Of a stretch of DNA of 64,000 bases, positions 2,424-62,751 are shown piece after piece. The stretch is from Candidatus Undivivens industriae. GTDB taxonomy: Bacteria > Omnitrophota > Gorgyraeia > Gygaellales > Profunditerraquicolaceae. Each line of letters opens with the position of its first letter. Positions within the stretch are counted from its first letter, which is position 1. Below the pieces are notes generated by a model that searched no databases, was not told where the DNA came from, and saw only the letters and a list, made by a program, of their open reading frames with translations. A program made the translations under genes and the position numbers. The DNA is taken from the NCBI GenBank assembly GCA_012514745.1, contig JAAYZR010000020.1:13293-77292 (forward strand), written 5' to 3'.

Positions 2424-3107
2424 CTACCCCTCCTTTCCCGAAACGATCAATGAAGGATCCTGTTTCTGCAGGTATTTGACAACCAACGCGGTAATAAACG
2501 CCTCGACCCAGCCGAATACCAGCAAATGCTCTCCGAGCATCATCGGAACGGCGACATTAAGGCCGTAAGGACAATACAACGACTGGTCCGTCGGGGTTCT
2601 GTACAATAAAGGCTGTATGCCGAACATCAGCGCCGTAGTCAATGCGGCTATGTTCAACGCCAGGTAGCCGGCCGCGGCGGCGGCAAAAACCCTGCGGCCG
2701 GACGTTGAAGGCGAATTGCCGCTTATGAACTTGTAAATATAATAGCCGGTGAAGACCTCGACAAACGCCATATTGAAACAATTCGCGCCGACGGCGGTTA
2801 TGCCGCCGTCGCCGAAAAGCAGGGCTTGGACCACCAAGGCCACAGTGACCGCTATACAGGCGGCCCAGGGGCCGAGAAGTATAGCCGCCAGCACCGCGCC
2901 CACCGCGTGTCCGGTAGTCCCTCCGGGGATGGGGACGTTGAACATCATTATAACGAAACAGAAAGCGGCGCTGATGGCAAGCAGAGGGATTTGTTTGTTT
3001 TTAAGAGTTTTTTTAACCATCCGCGAAGCCAGCGCCCATACAGGCAACATCACCGCATACATCACTCCGCTCGTGGCGGGCCCCAAGTATCCGTCGGGTA
3101 TATGCAT
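2424..3107 (-). CDS. cbiM: ECF transporter substrate-specific component CbiM/NikM (nickel/cobalt)
   Basis: Starts MHIPDGYL, the hallmark N-terminus of CbiM/NikM; 227 aa polytopic. Confidence 0.9.
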   Translation of the reverse strand: MHIPDGYLGPATSGVMYAVMLPVWALASRMVKKTLKNKQIPLLAISAAFCFVIMMFNVPIPGGTTGHAVGAVLAAILLGPWAACIAVTVALVVQALLFGDGGITAVGANCFNMAFVEVFTGYYIYKFISGNSPSTSGRRVFAAAAAGYLALNIAALTTALMFGIQPLLYRTPTDQSLYCPYGLNVAVPMMLGEHLLVFGWVEAFITALVVKYLQKQDPSLIVSGKEG

Positions 3108-3155
3108 TTTTCTCTCCTGTGTTGATTGTTGTTCCTATCTCCAGGATATGTATGA

Positions 3156-3180
3156 TAGCACAAAAGCGATACTTGTGCTA
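3156..3180. promoter_or_regulatory. Perfect inverted repeat TAGCACAA-N9-TTGTGCTA between nikR and cbiM; candidate NikR operator
   Basis: 8-bp perfect arms separated by 9 bp, sitting in the 90-bp nikR-cbiM intergenic region; preceded by a GTATGA hexamer resembling the E. coli NikR half-site. Confidence 0.4.
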
Positions 3181-3197
3181 CTGAAAAACAAAATTTT

Positions 3198-3611
3198 TTA
3201 CACTCCTCTTCCGGTGGTCGCGGCGTTCAAGGATAAATGTTTCACGCCTTTTGTGGAACGCAGAAGATCGGCCAGCTCCTTAATCTCTGCGGCCTTCCCT
3301 TTTGCGGCGATCATCTCCAGACAATTGGAGTGGTCGAGATGAATATGCTGGGTGGAAATTATCAAATGCTGAAAATTATGCTGCACCGCCGTCAACTTGC
3401 TTAACAGTTCGCGTTTATGATGATCGTAAATAAGCGTGATAGCCCCGGCGACTACATTATCGTCGGCCCACTCTTGTTCCACCAGTTCCCGCCGGATAAG
3501 ATCCCTTATCGCTTCGGAACGGTTGCCGCACTTACGCTTCCGGATCAGGGCGTCGAACCCGGAAACCAGATTCTTTTCTATGGAGACGCCGAATCTTATG
3601 AGATTGCCCAT
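3198..3611 (-). CDS. nikR: Nickel-responsive transcriptional regulator NikR
   Basis: 137 aa; ribbon-helix-helix N-terminus (RSEAIRDLIRREL) and a C-terminal His/Cys metal site (HIHLDHSNC). Confidence 0.85.
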   Translation of the reverse strand: MGNLIRFGVSIEKNLVSGFDALIRKRKCGNRSEAIRDLIRRELVEQEWADDNVVAGAITLIYDHHKRELLSKLTAVQHNFQHLIISTQHIHLDHSNCLEMIAAKGKAAEIKELADLLRSTKGVKHLSLNAATTGRGV

Positions 3612-3767
3612 TTACACTGCCTTTGTCTGTAGTCCGTCTTTCAATAAGATAAACCCGTCCGGACAGTAGTAAATTTATAATAGGACATGGCGGGATATCT
3701 GTCAACTTTTATAAAAACAAGGTGTAACACAGCGATGTATACTTGACCTTCCGATTGACTGGGAACG

Positions 3768-5459
3768 TTAAGAGATTCCATTCCTCTCCGCGACACAATT
3801 TCCCATGACCAGGATATCCATCTCACTGCGCTTGAAGCAGTCTATTGCGTCTTCTGGACGGCAAACGATCGGTTCTCCCCTTAAATTGAACGAAGTATTT
3901 ATCAATAAAGGAATGCCGGTCAGATTTTCGAATTCCTTGAGCAATCCACGCAAGCGGGAATTAGTATCGTTATCAACTATCTGTACCCTCGCGGTATTAT
4001 CAATATGCGTAACCGCGGGGATAACACCCTTTTTCTCTTCCTTTACCCTTCCGGCTATCAGCATAAACGGAGACTGTTGCAGCACATCAAAAAACTCGGC
4101 GCACCGCTCTTCAAGCACCGCTGGAGCATACGGCCGGAAATCCTCTCGGCGTTTCACCTTCAAATTCAGCAAATCTTTCATCCGCGGATTGCAGGGATTC
4201 GCCAATATGGAACGATTCCCCAAGGCCCTGGGGCCGAACTCCATCCTTCCCTGAAACCAACCGACGATTCTATCCTGCGCGATCTGCCCGGCTATATATT
4301 TGAGTAATTCGTCATCGGCATACTCCCGGAAAACGATATCTCCGTTAATAAACGCCCTCTTGATCTCCCTATCGTAAAACTCCGGCCCAAGATATACGTC
4401 TTTCAGCGCCGTGCGGCGGTTATCCCGCGATAAATAGTGATATACATAAACTGCCGCGCCTAACGCCCCTCCGCTGTCTCCGGAGGCGGGCTGAATGAAT
4501 AACTCCTTAACCGGAGTATCTTCTAAGATTCTAGCGTTAGCTACACAATTCATAAATAATCCGCCTGCCAAGCAAAGCCTCTTCATTCCGGTTCCCTTGT
4601 GCACGTTCCGAACTATATTTATCAGAATGTCCTCGGTTATTTTCTGCAAGCTGGCAGCTACATCGCAATGTCTTTGTTCGACCTTGTCCTGCGGGCGGCG
4701 TTCCTTTCCCAGCGTCTGTATCAGTTTTTCGGTATACATTCTCCCGCCTTTATTAAATCCGAAATATCTCTGGTCCAACATAAAACTACCGTCTGGCCTG
4801 ACAATGACCATCTTTTTGAATTTATCTACATATACCGGGGATCCGTAACCTGCCAGTCCCATCACCTTACCTTCGCCGGTCAGAGCCTCGAATCCCAGAT
4901 AAGTGGTGATCGCGCTGTAGAACAGTCCCAGTGAATTCGGGAAATGCAACTCTTTAGCGATGCGAACATCCACGCCACTGCCGACACCGAAGCTAGTGCT
5001 CGCCCATTCCCCCACGCCGTCCGCAATCAATATTGCCGCCTCTTCGAACGGAGAAACGAGGAACGAACTTGCAGCATGAGACAAGTGATGGTTTATGAAT
5101 ACGATCCTCCCCTCGTAACAAAGCTCTTTTCGCAATATCAACGGAAGGAAAAGCCGTTCCTTCAGCCAACCAGGCAATGTCCGGCAGAAACTGCCGAAAG
5201 AGAACGGGTATGCCCTTGCGTGGCTCAATAGGACACGGTAGAACTTGAGAAACGGTTTCTCATAAAAACCCACCGCGTTAATTTCTTTCATCGTTAAGTC
5301 AGCGTGCTGAAGACAATAATTTATCGCGTTTAAGGGGAACGCTGGAGAGCATTTACTGCGGTTGAACCGTTCTTCGGAGGCGGCGGCCGTTATCCTGCCG
5401 TCCTGCACGAGACAGGCAGCGGAATCATGATAAAAACATGATATACCCAATATATTCAT
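3768..5459 (-). CDS. Carbamoyltransferase, NodU/CmcH/TobZ family
   Basis: N-terminus MNILGISCFYHDSAA..., HHLSHAASSF, PASGDSG, GNRSIL motifs typical of O-carbamoyltransferases. The track ORF uses an upstream TTG; the ATG at 5459 is the more likely start. Confidence 0.85.
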   Translation of the reverse strand: MNILGISCFYHDSAACLVQDGRITAAASEERFNRSKCSPAFPLNAINYCLQHADLTMKEINAVGFYEKPFLKFYRVLLSHARAYPFSFGSFCRTLPGWLKERLFLPLILRKELCYEGRIVFINHHLSHAASSFLVSPFEEAAILIADGVGEWASTSFGVGSGVDVRIAKELHFPNSLGLFYSAITTYLGFEALTGEGKVMGLAGYGSPVYVDKFKKMVIVRPDGSFMLDQRYFGFNKGGRMYTEKLIQTLGKERRPQDKVEQRHCDVAASLQKITEDILINIVRNVHKGTGMKRLCLAGGLFMNCVANARILEDTPVKELFIQPASGDSGGALGAAVYVYHYLSRDNRRTALKDVYLGPEFYDREIKRAFINGDIVFREYADDELLKYIAGQIAQDRIVGWFQGRMEFGPRALGNRSILANPCNPRMKDLLNLKVKRREDFRPYAPAVLEERCAEFFDVLQQSPFMLIAGRVKEEKKGVIPAVTHIDNTARVQIVDNDTNSRLRGLLKEFENLTGIPLLINTSFNLRGEPIVCRPEDAIDCFKRSEMDILVMGNCVAERNGIS

Positions 5460-5565
5460 AGTGTAACCCTGCAATAAAATACGAGAATCCTACCTTTTGC
5501 CGGAGGGGTCAAGGTCTTTACCGCAAACACGAGCTGTTATCCAGACCGGTTCTTTCTTTCGCCGG

Positions 5566-5823
5566 TTAAGACTGAAAGCGGCCGTTATCGAAAGTACCGT
5601 CTTGTTCGGCGGAATCGATCCAGAAAGTGCCGTCTGTTTTCGCGCATCCGGCAAGGACCTTTCGCTTGAATACCGCCATGATCAAAACCGTCAATCCCAT
5701 ACCCAGGAAATAAACCACTGGCAGGCATATGCTCAACAACACTTTCTGTATCAAGCTTGTCAGGTTACGTAGAAAGGTCTTCCACATAAAAACTCCGCCC
5801 CTCGCCTTGTCCGTCAAAAACAT
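5566..5823 (-). CDS. Small membrane protein of unknown function wedged between the amidotransferase and carbamoyltransferase (possible SxtJ/SxtK-like accessory protein)
   Basis: 85-aa ORF; the internal start MWKTFLRNLTSLIQKVLL... is followed by one TM helix. Its position inside the operon supports it being real. Confidence 0.35.
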   Translation of the reverse strand: MFLTDKARGGVFMWKTFLRNLTSLIQKVLLSICLPVVYFLGMGLTVLIMAVFKRKVLAGCAKTDGTFWIDSAEQDGTFDNGRFQS

Positions 5824-6830
5824 AAATCATCCGGCCTGCATCCCAGTCTATCCAGTACCGGAAGTATATCTCCTTCTCTGAAATTGATTTCAAGCCGCTT
5901 CAATGCCTCTTCCCTGGTCAAAATACCCCTCCTTATCATCCTGCTCATCTCCGCGTGGTAATGCGAATAACCGTAATGCTTCAGGGACAGGAGCACCGAA
6001 AGAAAGTTCAGCCGGCAGTTTGTCGATCCGGCAGGATAGCTTAACGCCGTTGGTTTCCAACCCAGTTCCCGTTTTATCATCCCGGAATATTCCTCCTGGT
6101 CAAAAGGCAGAAACCAATGGGGTGAGATAACCGTGCATGCCGATTTTTGCCGGCCGGCTCTTTTAATGACTTCCTCAACGCTCGCCGGAAAATCCCTGTA
6201 TTTTGGATTCTGCCTACGGAATCTTTCCAGGAAATCCGCCGTCCCTTTCGCCATGGAAGAAAATTCCGGATGCCTGATCCTGCCGCGGCTGAACTGCCCC
6301 TTCGTCCAGCCGCCGATTATCACAGGGATGGACAATCCCGCAGCTATCCGTAACACGATACCCATATACCAGATAGAACAGACGTGGCAGATGACGGCTT
6401 TTGCTCTCGACTTCACTATCGCAGCGAACATATCCAGCATAAAATCGCTCTTGAACATAAGCGAGTCTACGCCGAGCCGTTCCACCGTGTTCCGAACGTT
6501 CTCCAGGGCATCCGGGAGTTCAAACCCGTTGTCGAAAGTAAACGCAAGAGGTTCCAGTTTATATCGCTTTTTCATGTAGTATAAAGCGGCGGTACTGTCT
6601 TTCCCTCCGCTACACATTACCAGGCAATGATATCTGCCGCGTTTTTTATTGCGTGTCAGCATCTTGATGAGTTCCGTTTCCAGTAAAGGGCTTTCCTGCC
6701 GGCGATAGTTCGCGCCTTTATGTCCGGAGCATAAACTGCATTGCCCAGCGGCGTTAAAAGTGATATCTGATTTATACTCCGGCATCACGCATTTCACGCA
6801 CAATTTGCCGGATTCATTCTTCACTTCCAT
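5814..6830 (-). CDS. PP-loop ATP pyrophosphatase family protein, N-acetyl sugar amidotransferase-like
   Basis: N-terminal Cys4 zinc ribbon (CVKC...CSLC) followed by the SGGKDS PP-loop motif. Confidence 0.7.
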   Translation of the reverse strand: MEVKNESGKLCVKCVMPEYKSDITFNAAGQCSLCSGHKGANYRRQESPLLETELIKMLTRNKKRGRYHCLVMCSGGKDSTAALYYMKKRYKLEPLAFTFDNGFELPDALENVRNTVERLGVDSLMFKSDFMLDMFAAIVKSRAKAVICHVCSIWYMGIVLRIAAGLSIPVIIGGWTKGQFSRGRIRHPEFSSMAKGTADFLERFRRQNPKYRDFPASVEEVIKRAGRQKSACTVISPHWFLPFDQEEYSGMIKRELGWKPTALSYPAGSTNCRLNFLSVLLSLKHYGYSHYHAEMSRMIRRGILTREEALKRLEINFREGDILPVLDRLGCRPDDLCF

Positions 6831-8272
6831 ATCGCCTCTCTTCCTAAGAAATCCATCACATTATTCGCCGCGTTCTCGGCAATAAGCGCGTTTCCTTTTC
6901 GCCGACAGTGTCCGAAGTTGCCTCCAAACATGTCCAGAAAATAATCCCGGTACCTGCCGCGTTTCAAGGCTTTTTTGAAAACATTCTCGTTGTCGATAAT
7001 AAGGACTCCGGGATTGCCGCCGAAAACTGTCTTCAAAGGTTCGACGCTACGCATGGGATACCCCATACACGCAAGTTTGATACCCTTTTTATCCAATATC
7101 TCCTTCATCTTTTTATAATTATATACGGTCAGAGCGCTGTAGGAAGATGCTTGCGCCGTATCCATCTTTCCGGTAAAGACGTCTGCCAAATCCGGCCTGC
7201 CGGTTTCCCGGTAAAGAGTGGATAATGCCGCGTAAACTTTTGCGCTCCCCGGATTAAAAGACACATATTTCTTTAGGACTTCCTCCGAACGGGAATATTT
7301 GCCTGTCCGCATATAAACCCAGGCGAGTTCCACATATCCTTTCTCATCGTAAGGATCAGCTTCTATAAGCCTTTTAAATATCTCCTCTGCGCTGTGATAC
7401 GCGGTCCTTGAAGAACAGAATAGCCCGTACCCCAGCAATGCTCCCTTGTCGGAAGGATCAACGTTCAATGCCGCCACAAAGCTATCTTTCGCTTCCAGAT
7501 ACTTCTTGTTCTGCGTATATGTCCACCCCAGTTCCACGTATGTGGAAGGATTGGTCGGGTTAACCGCCAGGGCTTTTCTAAACGCTTCTTCAGCCTTGAG
7601 ATATTGTCCTTTTTCCCGGTAAAATCTCCCAAGTCGTATATAATCATTCTCTCCGTATTTCCCGGGATCAGCTTCACCGGACTGCTCTTCCGCTGCCGGT
7701 TGTCCACCTATATCCGCGCCGGAGACAGGGGGAACCTTCTTTTTCGACACGGATCGCACCTTAAATTTCCCTCGGATATCCAATGAAAGAAACTTTAAGA
7801 AACGGTACGCGGCGGAATACCTAAACAATATGGATTCAGTATCCTGAATACCCTCGTAATATTTAATGTGCCTGTCGTTTATACCCATCATGGCGATCAC
7901 CATGTCCGGTTTGTATTTTTCCACATTCTCTTCCAAATGCCTGATGATATAGTTACTATCGACTGTAGATACGCCTTTATTGATCACACGAAAACAGAAC
8001 CCGTTCCCCAAGCGGTTCAACATCGTCTCAAGCTGGCTCGGATAAGAATTCTCCCCTCCTATCGCGGTGGAAGATTCACCGACGCACATAATCTTATAAA
8101 CTCCCCTGTGTTCTATACCCTGCCTGTTCCGGCATTCCTGTAGAAAAGATATCATGCAGCAGCCGAGACGGAGAACAATCTCAAGGAATATCAGGGACAT
8201 GAACAGTCCGGATATTACAACTAACGCCCGGGTAATCCCCTCGGTGAACTTTCTTCCCCTCATCGATATCAT
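6821..8272 (-). CDS. Membrane-anchored SGNH/GDSL-like hydrolase with a large TPR-repeat insertion (divergent paralog)
   Basis: N-terminal TM; block I as CVGESST, block III GINDRH; TPR repeats (AEEAFRKALAVNP...); C-terminal FGHC where DGHC is expected. Confidence 0.6.
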   Translation of the reverse strand: MISMRGRKFTEGITRALVVISGLFMSLIFLEIVLRLGCCMISFLQECRNRQGIEHRGVYKIMCVGESSTAIGGENSYPSQLETMLNRLGNGFCFRVINKGVSTVDSNYIIRHLEENVEKYKPDMVIAMMGINDRHIKYYEGIQDTESILFRYSAAYRFLKFLSLDIRGKFKVRSVSKKKVPPVSGADIGGQPAAEEQSGEADPGKYGENDYIRLGRFYREKGQYLKAEEAFRKALAVNPTNPSTYVELGWTYTQNKKYLEAKDSFVAALNVDPSDKGALLGYGLFCSSRTAYHSAEEIFKRLIEADPYDEKGYVELAWVYMRTGKYSRSEEVLKKYVSFNPGSAKVYAALSTLYRETGRPDLADVFTGKMDTAQASSYSALTVYNYKKMKEILDKKGIKLACMGYPMRSVEPLKTVFGGNPGVLIIDNENVFKKALKRGRYRDYFLDMFGGNFGHCRRKGNALIAENAANNVMDFLGREAIWK

Positions 8273-9858
8273 TTCCCTTCCGCCTCCAGGAAATTCAATA
8301 AATTACGCGCTATAACGGCATACCCATCGGCGCTGCAGTGCCCGTCGGAGACAAAACAATTGCGGGAGACCGCCCTGTCCATAACCGAGAAAACACGGTA
8401 ATTGCTCACGAAAGGTATCGAATTATCCCCGGCGATTTTCGACATCAGCTCCGAGAAACTCTCGTCTCCGGGATAATCCATCAAGAGCATCCTGCTCTTA
8501 TGACGACGACAGATATCCGCGATCTCTCGTATATCCGAAATTATCCACTGTTTGACATCGTCGAAATAGGATATCTTTTTAAGTAATGCGGCTATTTTGG
8601 GGGGAAGAACGCTGCTATTCTTAGCGAGCGACTCCGAAATGGCGGAACGATCGCCGCCGAAGATGCGCACAAGGTCGGACCGGGTATCAATATCCTCCGG
8701 ATCAAGGCAGGCGGCCAGCAGTATGCATTCTCTCGACTTCGCGGTCTCGCCTTTATTCGCATACACGCCGGCAAGACATCTATAAAGATCCCCGTTCATC
8801 CGATCGACGGCGATACCCTTTTCCAGCCATGCCACAGCCTCATCATAAAGTGCCTGCCTCGCATAAGCCGTCCCGATGCTCAAATAACATATCCCCGATT
8901 TAGGATCTATCTCAAGCCCTTTCCTGTACCATTCTACCGCCTCATCATAAAAACGCTGCTGTAAATAAAACCATCCGGTTTCCACATAACATTCTATGTC
9001 CCCTGGTCCGGTTTTAAAAGACTGATCCAGCCATTTTTTTGCTTCTTCATAACGTCCCAGAGAAACACATAATCCTCCCATGCGCGCGTAGCCTTCGCTT
9101 GAGGAGGGCTCGATCTCTATCCCTTTCAGAAAACATTTCTCGGCTTCGGGGTATGAACCGCATTCGGCCAAGGCAACGCCGAGTTCGATATAAGCCTTAC
9201 TCCCATGATCTCCGCGGCGGAAGCGCGCTTTCACCTTTTCTAAGAATGTTGTCCGGCCGCCGACAGAGCCGTAATTGTACGTAGCCGGAATGTTGCCGAA
9301 TGTGTCTACAGGAGAACCGCCCCGTTTTCTTATCTTCCAGGAAATCAAAGCGGTAAATTTCCCGACTTTGGTACGAAAAAACCATTTGACCGGCAACGCT
9401 GTCATCCCGGATTGTCTCTCCCGGCCGTAAAAATTCCAGTAATTATTACCACCGCCCAGAAGAATTACCAGGTCCGGAGCTGTGCCTTCTCTCAAAGCCG
9501 CCTGAAAATCAGAAATGATCTGCGTGGTATTATAAGAACATCTCCCGCGGTTCATTACCTGAAATTTACCTTCTGGATACCTGGAACCGAGCATCCTTGC
9601 CAGCTGAGTCGGATAATCAAGATCATGCGCCGCGCCCAGGCCGTAAGTAAACGAATCTCCTATACATAGTATTCTGTAGCCGCTCTGGACCTGTTTGTAT
9701 TTATCAATACCCTGCCGATGGAAGATGAAGAATCCGCCGGCGCGCAGGATAATCTCCAAAACGAAGAAAACTAAAGCCCCGCCGATTAAGAATGCCGCCA
9801 TTTTCCGCATGATTGCTTTTTCGGACATATCATACCGGCCGATGCCGCCTCTGGTCAC
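8269..9858 (-). CDS. Membrane-anchored SGNH/GDSL hydrolase with a ~300 aa TPR-repeat insertion between blocks III and V
   Basis: Block I CIGDSFTYG, block II NRG, block III GGGNNY, then several TPRs, then block V SDGHC. Paralog of 6821..8272. Confidence 0.65.
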   Translation of the reverse strand: MTRGGIGRYDMSEKAIMRKMAAFLIGGALVFFVLEIILRAGGFFIFHRQGIDKYKQVQSGYRILCIGDSFTYGLGAAHDLDYPTQLARMLGSRYPEGKFQVMNRGRCSYNTTQIISDFQAALREGTAPDLVILLGGGNNYWNFYGRERQSGMTALPVKWFFRTKVGKFTALISWKIRKRGGSPVDTFGNIPATYNYGSVGGRTTFLEKVKARFRRGDHGSKAYIELGVALAECGSYPEAEKCFLKGIEIEPSSSEGYARMGGLCVSLGRYEEAKKWLDQSFKTGPGDIECYVETGWFYLQQRFYDEAVEWYRKGLEIDPKSGICYLSIGTAYARQALYDEAVAWLEKGIAVDRMNGDLYRCLAGVYANKGETAKSRECILLAACLDPEDIDTRSDLVRIFGGDRSAISESLAKNSSVLPPKIAALLKKISYFDDVKQWIISDIREIADICRRHKSRMLLMDYPGDESFSELMSKIAGDNSIPFVSNYRVFSVMDRAVSRNCFVSDGHCSADGYAVIARNLLNFLEAEGK

Positions 9859-9918
9859 AGCTAATTTAAGACGATTGCGTTTTATACCGCCGCCGCGGCG
9901 TTAAGAGGGAATTCCACA

Positions 9919-10080
9919 CTATATTCCGGCGTAAATAAAAGAGATTATCACGCTCGGTCCGACATAGAAAACAAGGAGGGCTAAAAGCGCAAATGTTATT
10001 AGGATCGGCGCAAGAAAATAGATCTTATGCGCCTTGATCAAGTGGAAGGTTTCTTTAAAAAGATATACTGCTTTATTCAT
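9919..10080 (-). CDS. Unannotated 53-aa membrane protein, DUF5989 / SxtK-like (family usually found beside carbamoyltransferases)
   Basis: Reverse-strand ORF MNKAVYLFKETFHLIKAHKIYFLAPILITFALLALLVFYVGPSVIISFIYAGI. Pattern F-KE-F-LIK--K-YFL-PI...G-S-I--FIY is as I recall it for SxtK-like proteins. Absent from the ORF track because it is under 60 aa. Confidence 0.5.
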   Translation of the reverse strand: MNKAVYLFKETFHLIKAHKIYFLAPILITFALLALLVFYVGPSVIISFIYAGI

Positions 10081-10304
10081 GCTGCCCACGCTCGTTTTTT
10101 CAGATCATGCGTCCGGTGAGATTTGTTTTTTATTATAATACCTTAGGGAAACACTAACAAGCAATAAAATTCAGATCCAGGAGAAGGATGAAGACGAAAG
10201 GAAGCTGACGGCACCGTCTGCCGCCGCTGTGGCCTATAAGATTGCCCGCTTGTCCCGCAGTCCGGCGAGAAACGCGTGGTCGGTAGCGTCGTTGATAAGC
10301 GGGG

Positions 10305-11015
10305 TCAGGGAGATGTAGCCGCGGCGCACGGTCTCGCTGTCGCTTTCCGCGTCCGGACTTCCGCCAAAAATTCCCCGCTGAGCCAGTAATATTCGCGGTT
10401 GCGCGGGTCGTGCCTTTTTTCGAACCTATCCTTGAAGAAACGCGTGCTCTGCTTTGTGAATTTCACGCCTTTTATCTTGCCTTCCGGGATATTGACGTTC
10501 AACAGACAGCCGGCCGGGATGAACCTGCCGGAGAGTATTCTGCGCGCCAGCCCCGCGGCAAAAAAGGCCGCGAATTCAAAGTCGGCGGAAACGGAACGGG
10601 TCACCAGCGAAACGGCCATAGCCGGTATCCCGCACATCGCTGCCTCCCGGGCCGCGGACACCGTCCCGGAATACAGCACGCTGAATCCTGTATTCGGCCC
10701 GGGATTGATGCCGGAAACCACCATATCCGGGGAATGTTTCAATACCGCGCTCAAACCGAGCTTCACACAATCCGCAGGCGTCCCGCTGGTGCAGAACCAT
10801 TTCTCGCCGTCTCTGAATTTCACTTTCTTCAAACGCAACGGCTGGTGCAGGGTGATGGCGTGGCTCGCCGCGCTGCGTTCGTTGTCCGGAGCAACCACCG
10901 TGACTTTCCCAAGCGGCGATAATGCCCGGTAAAGAGCGGCCAGGCCGGCGGACTGAATGCCGTCGTCATTGGTCAACAATATACGGGCCTTTCTCGCTCT
11001 CTTCTCGGTCATCAT
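10305..11015 (-). CDS. surE: 5'/3'-nucleotidase SurE, with an apparent frameshift near the C-terminus
   Basis: RILLTNDDGI N-terminus. The frame after ...GEFLAE decays into nonsense, while the -1 frame encodes the canonical C-terminus DAESDSETVRRGYISLTPLINDATDHAFL..., ending at 10234. Confidence 0.8.
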   Translation of the reverse strand: MMTEKRARKARILLTNDDGIQSAGLAALYRALSPLGKVTVVAPDNERSAASHAITLHQPLRLKKVKFRDGEKWFCTSGTPADCVKLGLSAVLKHSPDMVVSGINPGPNTGFSVLYSGTVSAAREAAMCGIPAMAVSLVTRSVSADFEFAAFFAAGLARRILSGRFIPAGCLLNVNIPEGKIKGVKFTKQSTRFFKDRFEKRHDPRNREYYWLSGEFLAEVRTRKATARPCAAATSP

Positions 11016-37088: not shown

Positions 37089-37160
37089 CTGCCCCGCATG
37101 GACTCGAACCATGATAGTCAGATCCAGAATCTGAAGTCCTACCGATTAGACGACAGGGCA
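37089..37160 (-). tRNA. tRNA-Gln (anticodon CUG)
   Basis: Hand-folded cloverleaf: acceptor UGCCCUG/CGGGGCA (U1:A72, as in bacterial tRNA-Gln), D-stem GUCU/GGAC, anticodon loop UUCUGGA, T-arm CAUGG-UUCGAGU-CCAUG. CCA is not encoded. Confidence 0.85.
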
Positions 37161-52476: not shown

Positions 52477-52725
52477 GTTTTCGGTCCGAAAAAGGCATAA
52501 AAAAACCCCGCCTTGTGCCGTTGGACAAATGACGGGTTGAACCCATTTTCCAGGTTGGGAGCGATCCTTCCGGCGCCAAGGCGTCGAAAGAGCAAGACTC
52601 CCGTGTTCTTGGTATTGGTTCACCAAACATCATTCATCCTAACGAGCACGGCAGGGAATCTAACGCTGCAAAAGTAAGTATACCACGGCATCCTGCCGTT
52701 GTCAATTCCCGCCGGGGGGACTTCT

Positions 52726-62390: not shown

Positions 62391-62467
62391 TGGTGGGCCC
62401 AAAGGGACTCGAACCCCTGACCTTCACGATGTCAACGTGACGCTCTAACCAACTGAGCTATGAGCCC
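62391..62467 (-). tRNA. tRNA-Val (anticodon GAC), CCA encoded
   Basis: GGGCUCAUAGCUCAGUUGGUUAGAGCGUCACGUUGACAUCGUGAAGGUCAGGGGUUCGAGUCCCUUUGGGCCCACCA; cloverleaf folded by hand. Confidence 0.9.
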
Positions 62468-62573
62468 GACTAAATTTGTTTCCCGCCGTGGATCTGATAA
62501 TCGAGAACTTCCAGCGAATCAAATCTCGATTGCTCCGTGCGCTGTTTAAAGAACGTATTTAACAGCGCACTAC

Positions 62574-62657
62574 TGCCGAGGAAGGGAGTTGAACCCTTAA
62601 GACCTTGCGGTCGCGGGATTTTAAGTCCCGTGCGTATGCCAATTTCGCCACCCCGGC
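62574..62657 (-). tRNA. tRNA-Leu (anticodon UAA), long variable arm, CCA not encoded
   Basis: GCCGGGGUGGCGAAAUUGGCAUACGCACGGGACUUAAAAUCCCG...GGUUCAACUCCCUUCCUCGGCA. Confidence 0.9.
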
Positions 62658-62676
62658 CCGGTACATTTGTTAAACC

Positions 62677-62751
62677 TGGAGGCGGCAAGCGGATTCGAAC
62701 CGCTGAATAGTGGTTTTGCAGACCACTGCCTTACCACTTGGCTATGCCGCC
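62677..62751 (-). tRNA. tRNA-Cys (anticodon GCA), CCA encoded
   Basis: GGCGGCAUAGCCAAGUGGUAAGGCAGUGGUCUGCAAAACCACUAUUCAGCGGUUCGAAUCCGCUUGCCGCCUCCA. Confidence 0.9.

Follow-up and report, generated by a model that had tools for sequence, protein, structure and literature searches.

A conserved six-gene cassette joining a carbamoyltransferase, a PP-loop enzyme, TPR-split SGNH proteins and two small membrane proteins in Omnitrophota and other mostly uncultured phyla

A block of six genes in Candidatus Undivivens industriae, a member of the Omnitrophota, is described here from a 64,000-nucleotide stretch of contig JAAYZR010000020.1 (hereafter 'the window'). Listing and translation of open reading frames (ORFs) show that the minus strand between surE (10305-11015) and nikR (3198-3611) carries six co-directional, consecutive and tightly packed ORFs. 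From the surE side these encode a DUF5989 small membrane protein (9919-10089; probable ATG start at 10080, 53 aa), two proteins in which an SGNH fold is interrupted by TPR repeats (SGNH-TPR protein B, 8269-9858, and SGNH-TPR protein A, 6821-8272, 483 aa), a PP-loop ATP pyrophosphatase with the fold of N-acetyl-sugar amidotransferases (NASATs) that we call PPL (5814-6830), a small membrane protein that we call sm (5566-5823), and a carbamoyltransferase (CT) of the NodU/CmcH/TobZ type (3768-5474; probable ATG start at 5459, 563 aa). The ORF for protein B opens with GTG at 9858, and gene callers prefer an ATG at 9828 that yields 519 aa; the sm ORF spans 85 aa, and its homologues suggest a start at Met13 and a product of about 73 aa. 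Within the block, two junctions overlap by 4 nt and 10 nt, the sm gene meets its neighbour with an overlap or a short gap, and the remaining gaps measure about 26-106 nt.

The six genes probably form one operon. A consensus scan located a promoter-like site (TTGTTA-17-TATAAT, 10132-10160, minus strand) upstream of the DUF5989 gene, which is a candidate start for a six-gene transcript, and a terminator-like hairpin 3' of surE (10207-10225, minus strand) that would divide surE from the cassette. The block (3000-10000) has a G+C content of 46-50%, compared with 52-57% in the flanking housekeeping DNA, and this lower value is compatible with horizontal acquisition. An earlier sequence-only reading of this DNA had described six minus-strand genes between nikR and surE as a single operon-like block, and all six ORFs are present at the positions it gave.

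Relatives of PPL were sought by scanning one genome per species for 185,579 species, and 180 relatives were recovered. Counts given below out of 80 refer to the best 80 of these 180 relatives, and counts out of 40 to the non-redundant loci that retain at least 6 kb on both sides (fully flanked loci). Hidden Markov models (HMMs) built from the window proteins were mapped onto all loci, and individual loci are cited by L numbers. Omnitrophota contribute 28 of the best 80 loci, and another nine are metagenome-assembled genomes (MAGs) labelled Planctomycetes; the rest come from Elusimicrobia (8), Bacteroidota (8), Desulfobacterota and other 'Delta' groups (7), Bacteriovoracaceae and their relatives (6), Myxococcota (3), Patescibacteria (2) and others. 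The PPL family is tight, with 50-60% identity across phyla.

The window PPL is found, in an unchanged gene order, on three metagenome contigs. Its nearest matches among genome records are MAGs, one at 99% identity and two, both labelled Candidatus Omnitrophota, at 95% and 93%. A relative at 83% identity (L004) retains the setting between surE and nikR-cbiM. The MAG at 99% identity (L008, CAZGNT010000026.1) carries the label 'uncultured Sulfurovum sp.', which is probably a labelling or binning error. Several other relatives (L011, L017-L019 and others) are labelled Planctomycetales yet group with Omnitrophota sequences, and here too an error of taxonomy or binning is probable.

The genes that accompany PPL recur with high frequency. 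Among the fully flanked loci, CT is found near PPL in 35/40, sm in 34/40 and DUF5989 in 33/40, with all three present in 33/40, and 27/40 carry these three together with at least one SGNH-TPR gene. DUF5989 homologues are present in 61/80 loci. SGNH-TPR genes occur in 29 of the 35 CT-positive loci versus none of the five CT-negative loci (p=7e-4). The four core genes (PPL, sm, DUF5989 and CT) appear in 11 different orders and orientations and in at least eight phylum-level groups. Such persistence through rearrangement argues that the association is held by selection and not by descent alone. The six-gene set is a conserved unit across many, mostly uncultured phyla.

It could be proposed instead that the genes serve separate pathways and are neighbours by chance or through shared descent in one lineage. 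The DUF5989 gene of the window does lie three genes away from CT, and a few loci hold PPL alone. However, co-occurrence on the scale and in the variety of arrangements just described effectively refutes a chance neighbourhood, and we give this explanation almost no credence. Gene-neighbourhood comparison had been recommended in the sequence-only reading, and it reveals real synteny among relatives; the families likewise pass their model thresholds, with qualifications for PPL and the 85-aa protein that are given below. Five fully flanked loci from Elusimicrobia and other groups (L044, L045, L051, L083 and L085) have no CT, sm, DUF5989 or SGNH-TPR gene within 6 kb. In three of these five, PPL is accompanied by genes for the sulfur-handling proteins NifS and TusA, in one by TusA only and in one by neither, and large TPR-only proteins are encoded nearby.

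The window CT is unambiguous at the level of its domains, scoring 241.9 bits to Pfam Carbam_trans_N (cut-off 24) and 242.7 bits to Carbam_trans_C (cut-off 27), and its sequence contains an HHLSH motif. It is not a NodU orthologue, as it reaches 176.7 bits against a cut-off of 1000 for the NCBIfam equivalog NF041651. Weak matches to HypF/TsaD-type domains are also seen. Pfam and NCBIfam agree with the domain calls made from sequence inspection for the whole block, with two exceptions: PPL falls below the cut-off of its best family model, and for the 85-aa protein no curated model gave a match.

The window DUF5989 protein scores 33.0 bits to PF19451, for which the gathering score is 27. Across 68 homologues, the mean number of Lys and Arg residues is 3.8 before the membrane segment versus 0.07 after it, and therefore the N-terminus is probably cytoplasmic. 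In the sm family (alignment A2), a basic amphipathic N-terminus precedes a hydrophobic segment of about 25 residues whose centre holds a Y..GFG.T motif, and the tail is conserved as FW..A.GY......RQS. Given that sm is basic on both flanks of this segment, it may form a hairpin whose two ends lie in the cytoplasm. Comparison of 25 sm members with the Pfam and NCBIfam models gave no match at E<=1 beyond noise, and a database search with sm returned 51 relatives, all called 'hypothetical' and none named SxtJ. By these sequence comparisons sm is a new small-protein family of about 75 aa that has no curated model. Three Bacteroidota loci carry sm and DUF5989 beside PPL with no CT in reach, and thus the two small proteins may serve both enzymes. 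We read them as membrane tethers or adaptors.

Proteins A and B are 25% identical and share one architecture. Protein A has an N-terminal membrane anchor, GES, NxG and GxND blocks, a TPR insert, and then a C-terminal half that carries the block V His; protein B is arranged in the same way, with GDS as its block I. Protein B passes the Lipase_GDSL_2 cut-off of 32.9 with 52.6 bits. Protein A remains below it at 25.2 bits and is matched by our custom HMMs for both the N-terminal and the C-terminal halves. Several TPR models of Pfam score above their cut-offs in these proteins. In total, 47 loci yielded 78 proteins with both SGNH halves, each locus having one to six of them. The TPR insert that separates the halves is sited between block III and block V, and its median length is 246 residues.

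Catalytic residues are well retained in this family, with the block I Ser in 75/78, the block II Gly in 73/78 and the block V His in 77/79. The block V Asp is not conserved, which indicates an active site built on a Ser-His dyad. A hydrophobic N-terminal segment, with a charge bias that points to a cytoplasmic N-terminus, is present in 72/78, and hence the catalytic part is probably located outside the membrane. A database search with a full-length SGNH-TPR protein was swamped by generic TPR proteins and retrieved four true full-length relatives; the resulting alignment is shallow, and the structure model is therefore only moderately confident. An SGNH fold split by a TPR array is a new domain architecture, and the SGNH blocks, TPR models and N-terminal segment together substantiate the unusual membrane-anchored, TPR-split hydrolases that had been noticed by eye.

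Periplasmic SGNH O-acyltransferases and esterases of glycan modification, such as PatB and AlgX/AlgJ, and the TPR scaffolds of exopolysaccharide export are among the known systems closest to these proteins. Likenesses include membrane-anchored SGNH domains, a Ser-His site, and TPR docking of partners or polymers. The present family differs in that the TPR array lies inside the SGNH fold, no MBOAT or AT3 acyl shuttle is encoded, and up to six paralogues occur per locus. Tandem arrays of four to six SGNH-TPR paralogues are found downstream of CT in L052, L063 and L071. Apparent CT-SGNH 'fusions' in two Myxococcota loci (L062 and L070) proved to be over-extended ORFs in high-GC DNA and were discarded as Rosetta-stone evidence.

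The closest gene set that has been described is sxtI-J-K-L. Genes for a carbamoyltransferase (sxtI), for SxtJ and SxtK, and for a GDSL lipase proposed to be a decarbamoylase (sxtL) are tabulated together in saxitoxin clusters; the set is also found in non-toxic cyanobacteria, and sxtJ and sxtK are said to act 'in conjunction' with the carbamoyltransferase (PMC2679770, PMC2684587). The recurrent pairing of a carbamoyltransferase with an SxtK-like peptide, to which the sequence-only reading had drawn attention, is thus borne out by sxtI/J/K (PMC2679770). Both sets combine an O-carbamoyltransferase, two small proteins and a GDSL/SGNH enzyme, and the cassette looks like a wider relative to which PPL has been added. 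We take SxtK to be of the same size class as DUF5989. No link between sm and SxtJ emerged from Pfam, NCBIfam or profile searches, in which curated models and the names of relatives were compared. Unlike the cassette, the sxt set lacks both a PP-loop enzyme and a sulfur relay, and it targets a small alkaloid within a large cluster whereas the cassette stands alone. We found no paper that describes the combination of genes reported here, in keeping with the initial impression that it was not a described system.

This resemblance raises the prospect that the cassette is a small-molecule tailoring unit, a general form of sxtI-J-K-L that carbamoylates and thionates a diffusible compound, with the SGNH enzymes acting as decarbamoylases or deacylases as proposed for SxtL. 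The grouping of sxtI-J-K-L in saxitoxin clusters and its common occurrence in non-toxic cyanobacteria favour such a unit (PMC2679770, PMC2684587), as do the B12-radical-SAM genes that are frequent neighbours among the loci and the finding, presented below, that the nearest relatives of PPL are tailoring domains of nonribosomal peptide synthetases (NRPSs). However, neither the window nor most loci contain scaffold genes for an NRPS, a polyketide synthase or an amidinotransferase, and the window cassette is alone in housekeeping DNA. The membrane anchor, TPR inserts and copy number of up to six seen for the SGNH proteins would better suit a polymer or envelope target, and homology between sm and SxtJ was not detected in our searches. 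We rate this explanation as quite improbable.

The window PPL carries the tetracysteine CVKC...GQCSLC, a Zn ribbon, and the PP-loop motif SGGKDS, both of which are invariant in alignment A1. NASATs are defined by the equivalent motifs CxxCxn[GN]xCxxC and SGGxDS (PMC10607449). The overall fold is that of LpNASAT, and by this measure the NASATs (WbuX, WbpG, PseA and LpNASAT; TIGR03573; PDB 8WEX) are closest to PPL. TIGR03573 is also the best family match, at 140.8 bits, which is below its cut-off of 203.2. From these features PPL might be a true NASAT that makes an acetamidino or amidino group, beside O-carbamoylation and O-acyl editing of a surface polysaccharide.

The genes around PPL point elsewhere. 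Clustering of all neighbouring genes revealed that a NifS-type class-V aminotransferase adjoins PPL in 31/80 loci. This protein scores 457 bits to TIGR03402, passes NF002806 (IscS-subfamily), and in the PPL-linked desulfurases both the lysine (HK) that binds pyridoxal phosphate (PLP) and the active-site GSAC are retained. Directly upstream of PPL, 38/80 loci carry a TusA-family ORF with an invariant Cys in the motif LDLxGxPCPxN. In two loci from Myxococcota/'Delta' groups (L062, 8596-9975; L070, 8593-9975), a single ORF of about 460 aa covers both NifS and TusA, which may be a fusion or high-GC read-through. By comparison, hisH lies after each of two plasmid genes annotated as NASATs (L088 and L090), and with it either hisF or a gene of the HisF2 family for 'acetamidino modification'; these are the ammonia-delivery partners. 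No hisH or hisF gene recurs beside PPL in the 80 loci (HisH/HisF in 0/80).

Most PPL family members also have a Cys-x-Cys motif (SKCGCN), found in the loop that connects G178-Q179 with P188-E189 and that we infer to be a persulfide-accepting site. This loop is present in 38/38 TusA-linked enzymes, and TusA accompanies 0/23 loop-less enzymes (Fisher p=7e-9). CT is near 22 of the 23 loop-less enzymes, the exception being L012, whose upstream flank is just 676 bases long. Many joint losses of the Cys-x-Cys motif and TusA are suggested by a neighbour-joining tree. Tandem duplicates of PPL occur inside the cassette in L021 (8505-10564) and in L091/L092 (4859-6969), and L091 has the order NifS-DUF5989-PPL-PPL-sm-CT-TusA followed by a sulfatase-family gene.

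Beyond the four Cys residues of the Zn ribbon, a triad formed by C148, C151 and C272 is invariant in 80/80 loci and is absent from both the solved NASAT 8WEX and the L090 NASAT. PP-loop enzymes with three conserved Cys residues that perform ATP-dependent exchange of oxygen for sulfur include CtaC, TtuA and NcsA, and these are closest to PPL by cofactor signature and partner genes. CtaC of closthioamide biosynthesis is an Fe-S-dependent thioamide synthetase with a [4Fe-4S] cluster, and mutations of D77/S78 (ATP site) or C154/C157/C284 (cluster site) impair it (PMC6772006). PPL D78/S79 and C148/C151/C272 parallel these residues by numbering, and in a weak alignment the PPL CxxC falls near Cys142 of NcsA. 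No enzyme for mobilising sulfur is encoded in the cta cluster, and in vitro the donor is sulfide (PMC6772006); in this respect the cta cluster resembles the window, which likewise encodes no dedicated sulfur donor. CtaC differs in acting on carrier-protein-bound peptides, and TtuA and NcsA in acting on tRNA, and no carrier protein is encoded by the cassette. Closest in logic is the YcfA-YcfC pair of 6-thioguanine biosynthesis, in which a PP-loop enzyme works with a PLP-dependent sulfur supplier (PMC12494993). YcfC, however, works on a Cys adduct as a C-S lyase and is not part of a NifS persulfide relay, and the architecture differs, with no Zn ribbon.

Relatives beyond the cassette extend this comparison. 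An exhaustive profile search for PPL gave 4,727 representative relatives, of which 477 have E<1e-30. Among the best 150 cluster representatives, 105 have all seven Cys residues, and 33 of these 105 are parts of NRPS proteins that also have condensation, adenylation and carrier domains (for example P0278, P0283, P0289 and P0297). The NRPS-embedded seven-Cys domains are probably in-line backbone-tailoring domains, perhaps forming thioamides. A homologue with 28% identity on a Bacillus thuringiensis plasmid (L089, NZ_CP009349.1, 6998-7969) is annotated '7-cyano-7-deazaguanine synthase', and it lies among genes for acyl or peptidyl carrier proteins, ketosynthases, adenylate-forming enzymes and a thioesterase. 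The annotation is likely wrong and the enzyme CtaC-like; the Omnitrophota proteins bear the same QueC misnomer.

Given the coupling to NifS and TusA, the Cys triad, the absence of HisH/HisF among the 80 loci and the sub-threshold TIGR03573 score, sulfur insertion is a better family reading than amidation. PPL differs from NASATs in its partners, in the invariance of its triad and in the Cys-x-Cys loop of most members. We consider it likely that the chemistry of the PPL family is sulfur insertion, in which adenylation precedes conversion of C=O to C=S. The 'amidation' assigned to this gene in the sequence-only reading is accordingly not supported in the form given there, and the glycan or lipid tailoring that it proposed is plausible.

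For the window enzyme itself the case is more delicate. Its lineage has neither the relay genes nor the Cys-x-Cys loop, which makes the nucleophile less certain and allows for ammonia. We judge the chances of sulfur insertion by this relay-less variant to be evenly poised, with ammonia as the main alternative. The missing relay and loop, and the possibility of free ammonia as the nucleophile, also speak for the NASAT explanation, as do the NASAT signature CxxC..GxCxxC with SGGKDS and the TIGR03573 match noted above. Against that explanation are the shortfall of the score, the lack of HisH/HisF in the 80 loci when both annotated NASAT genes have them, the wiring of orthologues with 50-60% identity to NifS/TusA, and a Cys triad that is invariant in PPL and missing from 8WEX and the L090 NASAT. 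On balance we find a true amidotransferase doubtful.

With these considerations in mind, we would give an even chance to the proposal that the six genes are an accessory cassette for tailoring a molecule that is exported or membrane-associated, with an envelope glycoconjugate as the likeliest target, by a mechanism of the following kind. A cytoplasmic CT of the TobZ/NodU type would use carbamoyl phosphate and ATP to form carbamoyl-AMP and would then carbamoylate a hydroxyl or amine of the substrate, while DUF5989 and sm would hold CT at the membrane. By analogy with CtaC, TtuA and NcsA, the three-Cys site of PPL likely binds a [4Fe-4S] cluster. PPL would adenylate a carbonyl of amide type, belonging to the freshly made carbamoyl or to an N-acyl group, and swap its oxygen for sulfur to give a thiocarbamate or thioamide. 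In about half of the lineages sulfur would pass from NifS to a TusA-like carrier and on to the Cys-x-Cys loop of PPL. The lineage of the window, having lost all three relay parts, may draw on sulfide or housekeeping donors as CtaC does, or may have switched to ammonia. The two SGNH-TPR enzymes would face outward and act as esterases or as acyl or carbamoyl transferases on the same product, with the TPR insert providing a docking surface. Some loci do carry genes typical of a glycan context, including GT1, GT2, Wzy_C, epimerase and sulfatase-family genes.

The most specific form of this proposal is that the cassette installs a thiocarbamoyl or related thio-carbonyl group, with CT making the carbamate on an acceptor close to the membrane, PPL converting its C=O to C=S as an Fe-S enzyme, and the membrane proteins and outward-facing SGNH-TPR enzymes handing over or editing the group outside the cytoplasmic membrane. 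We put this forward tentatively and regard it as unlikely.

Several observations count against the proposed mechanism. Elusimicrobia that have NifS-TusA-PPL and no CT imply that a carbamoyl substrate is not strictly required by PPL. Custom HMMs found no NifS or TusA anywhere in the 64-kb window, and the relay loop is deleted in the window clade (QFSRGRIRHPE). The best structural match of PPL is an amidotransferase, and the Cys triad fails as a discriminator between sulfur and ammonia chemistry, given that the HisH/HisF-linked NASAT L088 has it. The connection to CtaC is drawn from residue numbering and from the L089 homologue in a thiotemplated cluster, not from an alignment to CtaC. The positive-inside rule is the sole basis for the outward orientation of the SGNH-TPR proteins, promoter and terminator are matches to consensus only, and all cassette members come from MAGs.

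PPL could also act without any external nucleophile, by ATP-dependent dehydration of the carbamoyl to a cyanate or cyanamide-type group, in the manner of HypF/HypE (carbamoyl to thiocyanate) or of the QueC/ArtA nitrile synthetases. Such a reaction would fit the relay-less lineages, and the weak HypF/TsaD-type matches of CT lend it some appeal. It would nevertheless leave the coupling to NifS/TusA and the co-loss of the Cys-x-Cys motif unexplained, the PPL fold is much nearer to NASAT than to QueC, and we know of no biological precedent for stable O-cyanates. Dehydration therefore strikes us as very improbable.

Regardless of which chemistry applies, the cassette is a real and widespread system that unites known kinds of enzyme in a new combination and with new architectures. 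If the sulfur-based proposal is correct, a fold with no previously known use beyond making acetamidino sugars has been coupled to a sulfur relay and joined to CT in about 0.1% of sampled species, across many mostly uncultured phyla that include Omnitrophota, Elusimicrobia, the candidate phyla radiation and others. Natural thiocarbamate or thioamide decoration of envelope molecules, which has so far not been looked for, would then exist, and thiocarbamoyl groups would be a chemistry not known in cell-envelope biology. Accessory genes of the SxtJ/SxtK/SxtL type, which have been without a function since 2008, would gain a testable context, and both a new small-protein family (sm) and a new architecture (TPR-split SGNH) would be defined. 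The repeated disappearance of TusA and NifS together with the Cys-x-Cys loop would likewise constitute a natural experiment on the sulfur supply of PP-loop insertases.

Additional features of the window were recorded. The surE gene that borders the cassette looks frameshifted at 10233-10424 (minus strand): its 236-aa ORF ends with ...ATARPCAAATSP and a stop codon, and the usual SurE C-terminus, RRGYISLTPLINDATDHAFLAGLRDKRAIL followed by a stop codon, runs on in another frame. A short SurE (235 aa) is likewise called on the independent contig L001, and the 83% relative L004 encodes an intact SurE of 259 aa. The window surE is either an assembly error or a pseudogene. A 6S RNA gene (56.4 bits) and four tRNA genes are located at 52501-52660, 37089-37160 and 62394-62751, all on the minus strand, with three of the four tRNA genes clustered at 62.4-62.75 kb.

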